A stretch of 64,000 bases of DNA, from NCBI GenBank assembly GCA_963730185.1, contig CAVSQW010000015.1:128001-192000 (forward strand), written 5' to 3'. The stretch is from an uncultured Gemmatimonadales bacterium. Lineage in GTDB: Bacteria > Gemmatimonadota > Gemmatimonadetes > Gemmatimonadales > GWC2-71-9. The notes beneath the pieces are model-generated. The model was not told the origin of the DNA. It did not search any database and was given only the letters and a program-made list of their open reading frames with translations. Each line of letters opens with the position of its first letter. Position 1 is the first letter of the stretch. Below, one piece after another: positions 2,714 through 7,630 of this stretch. Both the position numbers and the translations under genes were made by a program.

Positions 2714-2891
2714 GAGGGGCTCCACGTTTGGGGGTAGCTGGAATGTAGAGGGCCAGGCCACCGCCCGGAGGAGCCTGGCGGAGCTGAAGGAAGACGGGAG
2801 ACGGCTCGCCCGCCCGCCCGCCAATCGCCTCCCCGTGCCTGTCCGTCGGAGGCGCCGATCCCTAGATTTGTCTTCAGCCTGGAGGCTCCCC

Positions 2892-3107
2892 ATGGAATAC
2901 GAGTCGATCGTCGAGGTTCTGGGATATGCCACCGGTCACGAGCGGCAGGTTCGGATCACCACCACCGATGCCCGCGAGGTGGTCGGTGTGCCGACCAGCC
3001 TCGACCCCGACATCGGCGCCCTCGAGGTGTACCTTCACCCGGTCGGGGCGGACGATGTCGAGATCGCGATCTCTCTCGCCCAGATCGCCCGAGTGGACAT
3101 GGCGTAA
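2892..3107 (+). CDS. Small hypothetical beta-rich protein (71 aa)
   Basis: GGAGG RBS at 2881; MEYESIVEVLGYATGHERQVRITTTDAREVVG...; genome-typical codons. Confidence 0.7.
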   Translation: MEYESIVEVLGYATGHERQVRITTTDAREVVGVPTSLDPDIGALEVYLHPVGADDVEIAISLAQIARVDMA

Positions 3108-3117
3108 GGACGAGCGC

Positions 3118-3144
3118 TGAAACATTTTGGAACGTTTGAACGTA
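3118..3144 (+). promoter_or_regulatory. ECF sigma-type promoter (TGAAAC-N17-CGTA) upstream of the psp-like operon
   Basis: TGAAAC at 3118-3123 followed by a T-tract, CGTA at 3141-3144; resembles the Bacillus sigmaW consensus. Confidence 0.55.
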
Positions 3145-3234: not shown

Positions 3235-3516
3235 ATGTTTAGTGACGTGATCGTTTCGATTGCCGGCATGCTTTCGGGCATCGTCGTTGTCGGCTTTCTG
3301 GCCGTCGCGGTCGTGAAGATCTTCCGCGGGCCGGTTGGTCAGGCACTCGCCCGACGGCTCTCGGGCGGTGCGGGCGCTGGCCCCGAGGTGCTGGGCGAGG
3401 TCGAGGATCTCCGGCAGCAGCTCGAGCACGTCCAGCAGCGGCTGCTGGATGCGGAAGAGCGGCTCGACTTCAGCGAGCGACTACTGGCGCAGCGTTCGGA
3501 GGCGGAACGCGGATGA
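3235..3516 (+). CDS. Small TM + coiled-coil protein, paralog 1 (PspB-like architecture)
   Basis: N-terminal TM, IFRGPVGQALARRL, C-terminal AEERLDFSERLL. Confidence 0.85.
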   Translation: MFSDVIVSIAGMLSGIVVVGFLAVAVVKIFRGPVGQALARRLSGGAGAGPEVLGEVEDLRQQLEHVQQRLLDAEERLDFSERLLAQRSEAERG

Positions 3517-3812
3517 ACCGTGATGCCGTGACCTTTCTGGGCGTGATGATGGGACTCGCGCTGACCGGGGCGTTCAGCTACGCCGCGTTCACCGTGATCA
3601 ACGGGATGGCTCGGCGGATCAACTCCCGGTCGGCGCCGCCGGGGCTCGAGCCCGACGAGGTCGAGGCGCTTCGGGGCCAGGCCATGGAGATCGACGACCT
3701 CCGGACCCGGCTCCTCGAGGTGGAGGAGCGGCTCGACTTCACGGAACGATTGCTCACCGATGCCCGGGACGGCGGTCGGCTTCCCGGCGTCGGGCATGAG
3801 ACGCCGGTATGA
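3513..3812 (+). CDS. Small TM + coiled-coil protein, paralog 2
   Basis: ATGA overlap; TM; VEERLDFTERLL; ends ETPV. Confidence 0.85.
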   Translation: MNRDAVTFLGVMMGLALTGAFSYAAFTVINGMARRINSRSAPPGLEPDEVEALRGQAMEIDDLRTRLLEVEERLDFTERLLTDARDGGRLPGVGHETPV

Positions 3813-4180
3813 TCGGGCTCGGGCTTCGATCCCTGGTCCAGCAGGCGCCGCTGCCGCCGCTGCCGCCGCTGCCCCCGGACATGCCCCAGGTGTTCGTCGG
3901 GAGCGGCCCCCCGGTCGAGGCGATCATCTCGGTGGTGGTGGTAATCGTCGGAGCGTTCCTGCTGTGGCCTCTGGTTCGGGCCTGGGCTCGCCGGCTCGAG
4001 CGGGGCGGCGGCGGGGCCGACCAGGAGGCCCGGGGTGAGATCGAGGCGCTCCGGGCCCGTGTGGCGGAGCTCGAGGTGGTGGAGCAGCGGGTGCTGGAGC
4101 TCGAGGAACGAATGGACTTTTCGGAGCGGCTCTTGACTCAGCGAACCGGTGAGCCGCTTCGGAGGGGGGAGGACGCGTGA
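3809..4180 (+). CDS. Small TM + coiled-coil protein, paralog 3 (Pro-rich N-terminus)
   Basis: ATGA overlap; PLPPLPPLPP; TM; LEERMDFSERLL. Confidence 0.85.
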   Translation: MIGLGLRSLVQQAPLPPLPPLPPDMPQVFVGSGPPVEAIISVVVVIVGAFLLWPLVRAWARRLERGGGGADQEARGEIEALRARVAELEVVEQRVLELEERMDFSERLLTQRTGEPLRRGEDA

Positions 4181-4449
4181 ATCCGAACGATGTCGCGCCG
4201 ATGGTCATGGGGCTGGTCTTCTTCGTCGTGGCGGGAGCGGTTCTCATCTTTCGGGGGCCGATCGGCAAAGCCATCGCCCGCCGACTCGATGGGGGACAGG
4301 TGGCGCCGGAGGGACTGGAGGGCCGGGTTACCGAGCTCGAAGTGCGCTTGGCCGAAGCGGAGGTGGAGCGGCACGAGCTGGCGGAGCGGGTCGACTTCGC
4401 GGAGCGCCTCCTGGCGCAGGTCCGCGAGCGCAAGGAGCTGCCCCGGTGA
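4177..4449 (+). CDS. Small TM + coiled-coil protein, paralog 4
   Basis: GTGA overlap; IFRGPIGKAIARRL; LAERVDFAERLL. Confidence 0.85.
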   Translation: MNPNDVAPMVMGLVFFVVAGAVLIFRGPIGKAIARRLDGGQVAPEGLEGRVTELEVRLAEAEVERHELAERVDFAERLLAQVRERKELPR

Positions 4450-4826
4450 CCTCGTTCCGCCGGGCCGTCGGCGTCGACTTCGTGGACGTCGTGATCCAGG
4501 CCGGCGTGACGCTGGCGCTGGTCGGCTCCGTGGCTGCCGGGGACGGACCGATCGAGGCGGTCGGGCTGATCATCGCGACCTCATTCGTGATCCTGGGCCT
4601 CCGACGCCACTTGGCGCTCAAGCGGGGCGGCGAGCCGGCCGGGCTTTCCACCGGCCAGATGGCGGCCGAGCGGGTGGCCGATCTGGAAGCGCGGCTGGAG
4701 GAGCTCGAAGCCGTGCACGCCCGGATGGTGGAGCTGGAGGAACGGGTCGACTTCACGGAGCGGCTGCTGGCCCGAGGCGCCCAGGTCGAGCTGCCGGCCG
4801 AACCCCGCGCACCGACCCCGGTCTGA
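4446..4826 (+). CDS. Small 2-TM + coiled-coil protein, paralog 5
   Basis: GTGA overlap (3' part of ORF 4149..4826); LEERVDFTERLL; ends PTPV. Confidence 0.8.
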   Translation: MTSFRRAVGVDFVDVVIQAGVTLALVGSVAAGDGPIEAVGLIIATSFVILGLRRHLALKRGGEPAGLSTGQMAAERVADLEARLEELEAVHARMVELEERVDFTERLLARGAQVELPAEPRAPTPV

Positions 4827-4860
4827 GGAGGCCCGATGATCGCGAAAGAGAGGGGAGCCG

Positions 4861-5193
4861 ATGGGGCGTGATCGGTCGCTGCTGGCCATGGCCATCGTGG
4901 GCGTCGCGCTGCTCACCGCCCACGTCGTCCTCGGCGTCGCCATTGGTGACGACTACGCCATCCCGGTGACCGTCATCGGTGCCATCGCCGCGACGATCGT
5001 GCTGCGGGGACCGCTGGGGCAGGCCCTGGCCCGGCGAATCCAGGGAGAGACCGTGTCCGGCGAGCTCCCGCCGGAGACGGTGCTGAACGAGCTCGACGAT
5101 CTGCGCTCCCGGGTGTTGGAGCTCGAGGAACGGGTGGATTTCTCGGAGCGATTGCTGGCGCAGGCGCGAGAAAGCGAGCGGGCGGGTAGCTGA
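4861..5193 (+). CDS. Small 2-TM + coiled-coil protein, paralog 6
   Basis: VLRGPLGQALARRI; LEERVDFSERLL. Confidence 0.85.
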   Translation: MGRDRSLLAMAIVGVALLTAHVVLGVAIGDDYAIPVTVIGAIAATIVLRGPLGQALARRIQGETVSGELPPETVLNELDDLRSRVLELEERVDFSERLLAQARESERAGS

Positions 5194-5228
5194 ACCCCCC
5201 GTTATCTTCCGTCTCGGAGGAACGCCGA

Positions 5229-5624
5229 ATGATTACGAAGGATGATCTGCAGTCGTTCATCGATCGGCTGGAGGGTGGATCGGCCGACGCGAAGGAAATC
5301 GAGCCCGGTATCTGGGTGGTGCGAACCCCCCAAGGGGCCGAGGTGGTCGTGAGCTATTCGCCGCCGGTGGTGATCCTCCGGGTTCGGGTCATGGAGCCCC
5401 CGGGAGACGCCGGCAGGCGAGGCGGACTGTTCCGCCAGCTCCTCGAGCTCAATGCCCGCGACCTGGTACATGGGTCGTACGGCCTCGAAGGCGAGCACGT
5501 GGTGCTCACCGACACGCTCGAGCTCGAAAACCTCGACTACTCCGAGTTCGAGGCGAGCTTCGACTCGCTCACCCTCGCGCTCGCCTCGCACCTGGGCGCC
5601 CTCGCCCCGTACCGGGAAAGGTAA
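5229..5624 (+). CDS. CesT/YbjN-like (type III chaperone fold) protein
   Basis: Acidic 131 aa protein; LFRQLLELNARDLVHGSYGLEGEHVVL matches the LL-x-LN...G...L chaperone pattern. Confidence 0.7.
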   Translation: MITKDDLQSFIDRLEGGSADAKEIEPGIWVVRTPQGAEVVVSYSPPVVILRVRVMEPPGDAGRRGGLFRQLLELNARDLVHGSYGLEGEHVVLTDTLELENLDYSEFEASFDSLTLALASHLGALAPYRER

Positions 5625-5631
5625 CGATCCG

Positions 5632-6393
5632 ATGGGGATCTTCGAACGCTTCTCGACGATGCTCAAGTCGAACATCAACGACTTGATCTCCCGGGCCGAG
5701 AACCCGGAGAAGATGTTGAACCAGCTAATTCTCGACATGAAGTCGAACCTGGCCAAAGCCAAGCAGGAAGCGGCCGGGGCGATTGCCGACGAGAAGAAGC
5801 TCCAGGCTGACGCCGAAGGCCTCCGCAAGCAGGCCGAGGACTGGGAGCGCCGGGCCATGCTCGCGGTGCAGGAGGGACGCGACGACCTCGCCAAGCAGGC
5901 CCTCCTCCGCTACAACGAGGCGCTCCAGGGCGCGCAGAGCCTCCACGAGACCTGGCTCAAGCACAAGGCCGACACGGAGACGCTGAAGCTCCAACTTCGC
6001 CAGCTCAACGACAAGATCGAAGAGGCCAAGCGGAAGAAGAACATCCTGGTGGCCCGGGCCAAGCGGGCGGAGGCCCAGCAGCGGATCCAGGAAACCATGG
6101 CCGGGATGTCGGACAAGAGCGCCTTCGAGTCGTTCGATCGGGTGGCCGAAAAGATCGAGGCAATCGAACGGAAGGCGCTGGCCGCGGCGGAGCTCCAGCA
6201 GGAGTTCCAGACCGACGACCTGACCGCCCAGTTCAAGCAGCTGGAGTACAAGGGCTCGGCCGACCAGCAGCTCATCGACCTCAAGAGCAAGATGGGGCTC
6301 CTGGGCAAGGGTGAAGCTGCCAAGCAGATCGGGAAGGGTGCCGACCAGGTCGACGACGCCGAGGTCGTCGAGGACGAAACCGACGCTCACTGA
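5632..6393 (+). CDS. pspA: PspA/IM30 (Vipp1, bacterial ESCRT-III) family protein
   Basis: MGIFERFSTMLKSNINDLISRAENPEKMLNQLILDM...WERRAMLAVQEGRDDLAKQAL. Confidence 0.95.
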   Translation: MGIFERFSTMLKSNINDLISRAENPEKMLNQLILDMKSNLAKAKQEAAGAIADEKKLQADAEGLRKQAEDWERRAMLAVQEGRDDLAKQALLRYNEALQGAQSLHETWLKHKADTETLKLQLRQLNDKIEEAKRKKNILVARAKRAEAQQRIQETMAGMSDKSAFESFDRVAEKIEAIERKALAAAELQQEFQTDDLTAQFKQLEYKGSADQQLIDLKSKMGLLGKGEAAKQIGKGADQVDDAEVVEDETDAH

Positions 6394-6446
6394 CCCCGGC
6401 CGAGCCGGGGGCCTCGAGCGGGCGGGGGGGAATCCCCGCCCGCTCG
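6394..6446 (+). terminator. Double hairpin after pspA (putative terminator or 3' stabiliser)
   Basis: CCCCGGC/GCCGGGG (6394-6410) and a 13-bp stem CGAGCGGGCGGGG/CCCCGCCCGCTCG (6415-6446); weak U-tail. Confidence 0.6.
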
Positions 6447-6464: not shown

Positions 6465-6492
6465 TTGACCCGGGCCGGGTTTAGCATACAAT
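6465..6492 (+). promoter_or_regulatory. Sigma70-like promoter
   Basis: TTGACC-N16-TACAAT upstream of the DUF1611 gene. Confidence 0.55.
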
Positions 6493-6547: not shown

Positions 6548-7630
6548 ATGCCCGAGCCTCGCTACCTCATCATCGCCGACGGCAACTTCCACCCGTTGGA
6601 GTCGAAGACGGCCAACTCGGTGATCCGATATCATCCCCAGCGGGTGGTCGGGGTTGTGGACCGGCAAACCGCCGGCAAGACCGTCCAGGACATTCTGGGC
6701 TTCGGCGGCCCCACCCCGATCGTCGGCTCGATCGAGGCCGGGCTGGCCCTCAAGCCCAACGCGGTGATGATCGGCATCGCCCCGGCCGGCGGGCGGCTGC
6801 CCGACGAGTGGCGGGGGTGGCTGGTCAAGTCGTTGGAGGCGGGGTGTGACCTGATCAGCGGACTCCACACCTTCCTCGGCGACGATCCCGTGCTGGCCGC
6901 CGCGGCGGCCAAACACGGCCGGACGATCACCGACGCCCGGAAGGCGCCTGCCAACCTGCTGATTGCGGCCGGGCAGGCCCGCCTGGTCGAGCCGTTCGTG
7001 ATCCTGACCGTCGGCACGGACTGCAACGTCGGCAAGATGACCGCGCAGCTTCAGCTGACCCAAGCTCTCAAGGCCCGGAAGGTCAGGACCAACTTCGTTG
7101 CGACCGGCCAGACCGGCATCTTCATCGAGGGGTGGGGCACCGCCGTGGATGCGGTGGTGGCGGACTTCATCGGTGGCGCCGCCGAGGAGTTGGTGCTTCG
7201 GGGCGCCAAGGATGCCGACATCGTGATGGTCGAAGGGCAGGGGAGCATCAACCATCCGGGCTACTCCGGGGTGACGCTCGGGTTGCTCCACGGCTCCTGC
7301 CCCGATGCGATGATCCTTTGCCATCAAGCCAGCCGGGACCACATCGGGGAGTACCGGACCACACCCTGGCTCCGGATTCCGCCCCTGTCCAAGTACGTGG
7401 AGATGTACGAGCTGATCGGCTCGGCCGTCCACCCCACTCGGGTCATCGGGATCTCGCTCAACACCTACGACCTGTCTCCCGAGGCCGCCCAGGCCGCGTG
7501 TCGGGCGGCGTCGGAGGAGACCGGGCTCCCGTGCACCGACCCGGTCCGCTTCGACTCCGCGCCCTTGGTCAACGCGATCCTCCGGGAGCGCGAGGCCTAC
7601 CTGGAGCGGCGGGCCCTCTTCCGAGACTGA
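6548..7630 (+). CDS. DUF1611 family P-loop protein (DgcN-like)
   Basis: VGTDCNVGKMT, ATGQTG, VEGQGS, LLHGS motifs. Confidence 0.85.
   Translation: MPEPRYLIIADGNFHPLESKTANSVIRYHPQRVVGVVDRQTAGKTVQDILGFGGPTPIVGSIEAGLALKPNAVMIGIAPAGGRLPDEWRGWLVKSLEAGCDLISGLHTFLGDDPVLAAAAAKHGRTITDARKAPANLLIAAGQARLVEPFVILTVGTDCNVGKMTAQLQLTQALKARKVRTNFVATGQTGIFIEGWGTAVDAVVADFIGGAAEELVLRGAKDADIVMVEGQGSINHPGYSGVTLGLLHGSCPDAMILCHQASRDHIGEYRTTPWLRIPPLSKYVEMYELIGSAVHPTRVIGISLNTYDLSPEAAQAACRAASEETGLPCTDPVRFDSAPLVNAILREREAYLERRALFRD

Follow-up and report, generated by a model that had tools for sequence, protein, structure and literature searches.

Six tandem small membrane-protein paralogs upstream of a CesT-like gene and pspA in a Gemmatimonadales genome

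The array operon and its proteins

We analyzed a window of 64,000 nucleotides (nt) from an uncultured Gemmatimonadales bacterium (assembly GCA_963730185.1, contig CAVSQW010000015.1, positions 128,001 to 192,000), in which six consecutive small genes of one paralogous family directly precede a gene for a CesT/Tir-like (YbjN-fold) chaperone-type protein (here called cesT) and pspA, the gene of the bacterial ESCRT-III protein PspA/IM30. The array, on the forward strand like the rest of the operon, comprises paralog 1 (3235..3516; 93 amino acids (aa), one transmembrane (TM) helix; subtype E, first in most arrays), paralog 2 (3513..3812; 99 aa; subtype F), paralog 3 (3809..4180; 123 aa with a Pro-rich N-terminus; subtype B), paralog 4 (4177..4449; 90 aa; subtype G), paralog 5 (4446..4826; 126 aa, probably two TM helices; subtype D) and paralog 6 (4861..5193; 110 aa, probably two TM helices; subtype A, last in most arrays). 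The GTG start of paralog 5 was chosen by us within a longer open reading frame (ORF). From gene 1 to gene 5, neighbours overlap by ATGA, ATGA, GTGA and GTGA in turn; then come spacers of 34 nt between genes 5 and 6, 35 nt between gene 6 and cesT, and 7 nt between cesT and pspA. The product of cesT (5229..5624; 131 aa) matches CesT_Tir_1 (PF22550, E 2e-23) and that of pspA (5632..6393; 253 aa) matches PspA_IM30 (PF04012, E 2e-46); it is the one pspA match in this genome, whose assembly is 82% complete. Two G+C-rich hairpins at 6394..6446 on the same strand (z -3.9 vs 200 shuffles) probably close the operon at its 3' side; a U-tract is absent, and a terminator scan did not call them. An initial annotation, made from the sequence alone, had described six small genes of about 90-126 aa, the first five linked by overlaps, and behind them a CesT/YbjN-like gene, pspA and hairpins; the gene boundaries, the four overlaps and the three downstream features were all recovered here.

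The paralogs have diverged in sequence, with amino-acid identities of 32-50% to paralog 1. Hydropathy gives one hydrophobic stretch for genes 1-4 and a stretch of ~45 residues, probably two helices, for genes 5 and 6, in agreement with the one or two TM helices noted before. The structural model of paralog 1 (predicted local distance difference test, pLDDT, 92) comprises helices 2-31, 33-42 and 50-92, of which the first is the membrane helix, the second is short and basic, and the third, behind a loop, has 43 residues. Both hydropathy and this model display an N-terminal TM helix followed by a helical domain, which the basic segment would place on the cytoplasmic side. An xxARR element is present in five of the six paralogs (gene 5 lacks it), as had been counted previously. 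The tail E-R-x-D-F-x-E-R-L-L is found without variation in all six; the longer motif of the initial annotation, E-E-R-[LVM]-D-F-[STA]-E-R-L-L, described as near-invariant, stands except for its first E, which is A in gene 4. Among 338 tails, conservation is 94-100% at the charged positions and at the Phe beside the heptad core, in part owing to the way in which tails were selected, and these positions would suit a shared binding face.

No known family could be assigned to the paralogs. A scan of Pfam and NCBIfam placed 0/6 above any cut-off, the paralog 1 model had no match in Foldseek, another structure search with it returned generic coiled coils only (Z <=6.5, rmsd (root-mean-square deviation) about 8-14), and a PDB sequence search gave chance coiled coils only. 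With the queries used, no phage or viral homologs were found. Matches to V-SNARE, MerR, GspM, CcmI and SlyX were all below cut-off and were taken as matches of shape; for SlyX, 4/150 relatives matched at E <=0.1 (best 0.057, below the SlyX cut-off), and the paralogs have TM segments whereas SlyX is a soluble coiled coil. Apparent fusions (P0043, P0271-P0273; one with a CesT domain) were read as frameshifted assemblies and left unused as fusion evidence. Altogether, this annotation-free family amounts to 2,389 clusters at 50% identity.

The model of the CesT-like protein matched T110839, SicP, BacA and ExsC in Foldseek (TM-scores of 0.6-0.7), and its fold was likened to secretion chaperones, BacA and YbjN. 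As the initial annotation had stated, neither pspC nor pspF is visible at the locus: the operon encodes no PspC domain and no activator gene lies upstream. The sole PspC-domain gene of the genome is located on another contig (C8:12165-12503), has a Cys-rich N-terminus, lies in a stretch of lower G+C content at third codon positions and is unlinked to pspA. Regarding the flanks of the operon, a 71-aa ORF without family match (2891-3107) lies just 5' of the promoter motif described below, and its relatives stand 5' of the array in 8/80 related loci. On the other side, a DUF1611 gene (6548-7630; DgcN-like, below cut-off), served by a sigma70-like promoter at 6465-6492, follows pspA; the gene stands downstream of pspA in 63/80 related loci.

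Conservation, subtypes and promoter of the array

The linkage of the array was assessed among the best 80 of 328 cesT relatives, which are 70-82% identical and hence close kin. Array-family genes lie directly upstream of cesT in 80/80 loci and pspA comes next in 79/80, the remaining locus being truncated by a contig end. Because it recurs in all 80 related loci, the layout is not a product of chance. Complete arrays (n=63) contain 2 to 13 copies, usually 3 or 4. In the reverse direction, 29 other genomes were chosen by best array-family match; 28/29 of their arrays run into cesT and/or pspA and the other one stops at a contig end (19 with cesT in the first cut; the remaining ten comprise eight with cesT and pspA, one with pspA alone and the contig end). 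These counts bear out the paralog-expanded membrane set of the initial annotation; the family is unnamed and matches no library above cut-off. The translational coupling proposed there is also supported: at 153/190 overlapping junctions (of 260 in total) the overlapping start codon is in frame with the next gene, where about a third would be expected. The Psp-type (phage shock protein) operon is conserved. At one locus (L283, G129:C158), a 10-gene array reaches pspA with no cesT match in between, and a record filed under Bacillota (L109) carries the operon at 70% identity and is probably a misbinned contig.

To describe the wider distribution, genome families were labelled f1-f12, f1 being the family of this genome. 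The array-family profile matches 96/96 f1 genomes, in a phylum tally that takes in one unpublished genome (G157), which enters no other result here. Outside f1, copies lie upstream at ten of 60 pspA loci: f3 contributes arrays of 3 and 5, and a single divergent homolog occupies the slot before cesT/pspA in f5 (1/1), f6 (5/5) and f8 (2/3), eight loci in total. Whole arrays next to pspA were observed in no family but f1 and f3. The slot before cesT-pspA is therefore old. The one f11 pspA locus has no upstream copy (0/1). The paralog family was present in 31/31 f4-f8 genomes and in 0/15 f10-f12 genomes, these genomes being kin and not independent, and cesT was likewise found in 0/15 of the latter. 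Consequently, the paralog family and the cesT-pspA pair share the same range.

Subtypes were defined heuristically, as clusters of reciprocal best matches, which gave seven groups. The six genes of the window occupy six different clusters. Of 346 array proteins, only 8 have their best BLAST match, and 11 their nearest tree neighbour, within their own array; gene 1 matches the first genes of other arrays and gene 6 the last. Subtype B occurs once in each of 69 loci, never as a duplicate; subtype A is duplicated in 15/63 loci. C-B and C-B-A account for most of the smallest arrays. By these comparisons, the paralogs are old, non-redundant subtypes kept across species. As they predate these species and stay distinct, division of labour is favoured over dosage. 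The hetero-oligomers suggested in the initial annotation would need such subtypes; the oligomers themselves are predicted.

An ECF-sigma promoter motif (extracytoplasmic function; sigmaW-type), TGAAAC-N17-CGTA, lies 90 nt before gene 1 (3118..3144, forward strand) and had previously been missed. The TGAAAC/CGTA motif occurs at conserved spacing in 62/64 array upstream regions (the 63 complete arrays and this window), and a sigma54 promoter pattern in 0/64. Genome-wide, there are 24 sites of TGAAAC-N16/17-CGTA, 22 of them with an ORF right after, and 8 sites of GAAACA-N16-CGTA; many ORFs behind the 24 sites look like membrane or transport proteins, judged by eye from their N-termini. The motif elements match the sigmaW elements reported for B. 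subtilis (PMC5758882), whose pspA is described as being under sigmaW control (PMC8581546). Based on its -35 and -10 elements, the array operon can be assigned to a predicted sigmaW-type ECF regulon. The genome has 46 sigma-region-4 matches. A candidate controller is encoded at C14:288973-289265, where the same motif lies between an ECF sigma gene and a downstream gene for a probable zinc-binding anti-sigma factor. In addition, the motifs at C3:84071, C6:493440 and 3118-3144 of the window hold a second (G/T)GAAC/AAAC-GT element within the spacer, possibly an overlapping second ECF site.

Relationship to PspB and to described systems

The curated cut-offs of PF06667/TIGR02976 were exceeded by 0/6 paralogs and in 0/201 genomes. 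Below these cut-offs, TIGR02976 gave 59 matches at E <=1 among 150 relatives (best 1e-6). Weak PspB-profile matches over the 201 genomes occurred in 40/96 f1 genomes vs 10/104 others, and the best 30 of the 62 listed comprise 22 members of the paralog family and one gene of a sister group introduced below. The nearest named Atlas clusters of the family are PspB (0.77), and the profile-profile probability against E. coli PspC is <20%. We conclude that the likeness to PspB seems weak but specific, and that distant kinship or close analogy is probable.

PspB and PspC (pspFABC; PF06667, TIGR02976; PF04024) are likewise small and encoded with pspA; they sit in the inner membrane by an N-terminal TM helix and have a helix on the cytoplasmic side. 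They are reported to sequester PspA (PMC3467454). Unlike pspFABC, the operon studied here has no PspC domain, no adjacent pspF and no sigma54 motif; instead, 2-13 diverged subtypes stand upstream of pspA, with an ECF-type motif and an inserted CesT-like gene. Occasional PspB duplicates in some operons have been described (Ravi 2024, PMC11237479). In B. subtilis, pspA-ydjGHI (sigmaW) and liaIH resemble our operon in their ECF or stress control and in the reported membrane recruitment of the PspA homolog by co-encoded proteins (PMC8581546, PMC7619361). However, the six paralogs have no YdjG/H/I or LiaI match, and the partners are a paralog family here and single genes there.

The initial annotation had not recognized the architecture from any described system. 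This does not hold for the cesT-pspA pair, which corresponds to the CesT/Tir-PspA dyad (E. coli yjfI-yjfJ; P. aeruginosa bacA-bacB), with a CesT/YbjN-fold gene directly before pspA, published as standing alone or in three operon groups (Ravi 2024, PMC11237479). The larger dyad operons in the consulted sections of that paper add band-7/flotillin, spermidine-synthase-like or ATP-grasp genes, with no array of small membrane proteins among them. For BacA, a chaperone fold is reported, and its binding to BacB is cited as unpublished (PMC10948618). The membrane-partner array itself is apparently undescribed so far. Full-text searches of papers other than subscription ones gave no description of it; the consulted parts of Popp 2022 (PMC9239133) and of a 2025 review (PMC7619361) contain nothing on it. 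The word 'gemmatimonad' has 0 occurrences in PMC11237479 (main text and supplement) and in the main text of PMC9239133; the web app of the former and the deposited tables of the latter may list such loci.

Possible role of the array

The paralog family accompanies the cesT-pspA pair and an envelope-stress promoter, yet is not always beside pspA. We assign a probability of about one half to the reading that the operon is a Psp variant under ECF control whose membrane partners are heteromeric and PspB/C-like, and that PspA would dock at them. Envelope stress would activate an ECF sigma factor and thereby a Psp variant without PspF control. A single transcript would supply six membrane coiled-coil proteins in coupled dose, together with the CesT-like chaperone and PspA. 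The six paralogs would join differing membrane and N-terminal parts to a common cytoplasmic heptad helix ending in ERxDFxERLL, and these helices may bundle them into heteromers in the manner of PspB and PspC. Such heteromers could provide the membrane with sites for docking or sensing, at which PspA collects, with the charged and Phe positions of the tail as the docking face, and the CesT-like chaperone would probably hold PspA or the tails soluble beforehand.

Several observations weigh against this reading. The PspB profile is matched by as many of the 150 relatives (59/150) as GspM (61/150) and CcmI (53/150), a comparison on these 150 only. Against a PspB alignment that is narrow and enterobacterial (its homologs are 72-100% identical to E. 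coli PspB or mostly from enterobacterial plasmids), the profile-profile probability is 10-46%; the earlier label 'PspB-like' corresponds to a weak full-length profile match, with no member over the cut-off. Nine further copies with varied N-termini are scattered in this genome, one of the nine with the promoter motif. No copy lies <=2 kb upstream of cesT/pspA in f2 (0/29), f7 (0/15) and f4 (0/4), 48/48 loci being without; the pair can therefore stand without an adjacent array. In two f7 loci, one family member stands between bshC and murJ, the gene of the lipid II flippase (L249:4323-4604, L250:4026-4421), and in f2, genes of a sister group lie between a HisKA/HATPase sensor kinase and a receiver-sigma54-Fis regulator. 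The objection foreseen in the initial annotation, that homologs might usually be unlinked to pspA, thus applies in part, given the nine dispersed copies of this f1 genome and the three families f2, f7 and f4.

The f2 sister group, reached via a top PspB-profile match, has the tail ERISEGQRFxxKLL and is present in 29/31 f2 genomes; array genes, divergent single genes and this group are homologous (hhalign 96-98%). The placement between kinase and regulator was found in 13/16 f2 loci, selected by the kinase, vs 0/14 f1/f3/f8 loci, and in 11/12 f2 clusters, selected for being tandem. In this genome, the orthologous kinase and regulator genes abut with nothing between them (C11:24249-26878). Sister genes in such an operon were seen at L237-L245, L247, L248 and L251-L266, some with 100-150 extra N-terminal residues. 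The dispersed copies of our genome carry the tail on other N-terminal parts (C1:99463-99843, C4:52758-53495, C8:147133-147327 and six further sites), one of them long and one behind a Cys-rich segment; the N-terminus of one copy resembles what we take to be a TM2 domain.

A possible, though less probable, explanation is that the family serves the ECF regulon as a general module against membrane stress and makes no contact with PspA, its proteins acting as membrane-protecting effectors or kinase modulators and its adjacency to pspA reflecting promoter sharing. The lineage-dependent switch of placement (13/16 vs 0/14) and the dispersed copies speak for it, as does the promoter motif before both f2 operons (cesT in 17/22 loci, kinase in 14/27), and a precedent is given by Yersinia PspBC, which are reported to protect against secretins without PspA (PMC3467454). 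However, the slot immediately 5' of cesT-pspA is kept in f1, f3, f5, f6 and f8, and the genome offers about two dozen other sites with the same motif, yet the array remains here.

A more far-reaching form of the Psp-variant reading appears doubtful to us: a modular upstream adaptor layer for bacterial ESCRT-III, in which fixed subtypes would mix combinatorially via one tail, each mix reading its own membrane insult and nucleating PspA polymers, functionally like eukaryotic ESCRT-0/I/II. Still less probable is a scheme in which the tail binds the CesT-like protein and not PspA, so that the membrane sensors would capture the chaperone and free PspA in a partner switch like that of ExsC-ExsE. For CesT-fold chaperones, extended strands and not coiled coils are the usual ligands, which counts against it, as do the cesT-pspA pairs without adjacent copy in f2, f4 and f7 and the 10-gene array of L283 with pspA and no cesT match. 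L283 is at the same time the exception to a gene order that would suit this scheme, with the chaperone gene between array and pspA; the matches of the CesT-like fold to ExsC and BacA, and the reported rise of the proteins of BacA's own operon on BacA loss (PMC10948618), also agree with it. Least probable is a recent redundant amplification of interchangeable copies for dosage only, which would account for copy numbers of 2 to 13 and for duplication of subtypes within loci such as that of subtype A (15/63), but under which copies should not be closer to same-position genes of other species than to their array neighbours, nor subtype B unduplicated in 69 loci.

Returning to the reading as a Psp variant with membrane partners, the unnamed paralog family probably helps the cell to respond to membrane damage. 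Known routes by which bacterial ESCRT-III proteins reach damaged membrane come from three model systems, and here one lineage pairs pspA with 2-13 conserved, non-interchangeable and unannotated small membrane proteins. Their shared tail provides a precise target for PspA docking tests, and the placement next to two-component genes offers a second, separable prediction. In the sister family, the module shares an operon with genes for a sensor kinase and a sigma54 activator and, if the adaptor-layer form were true, would link Psp-type membrane sensing to two-component signalling.

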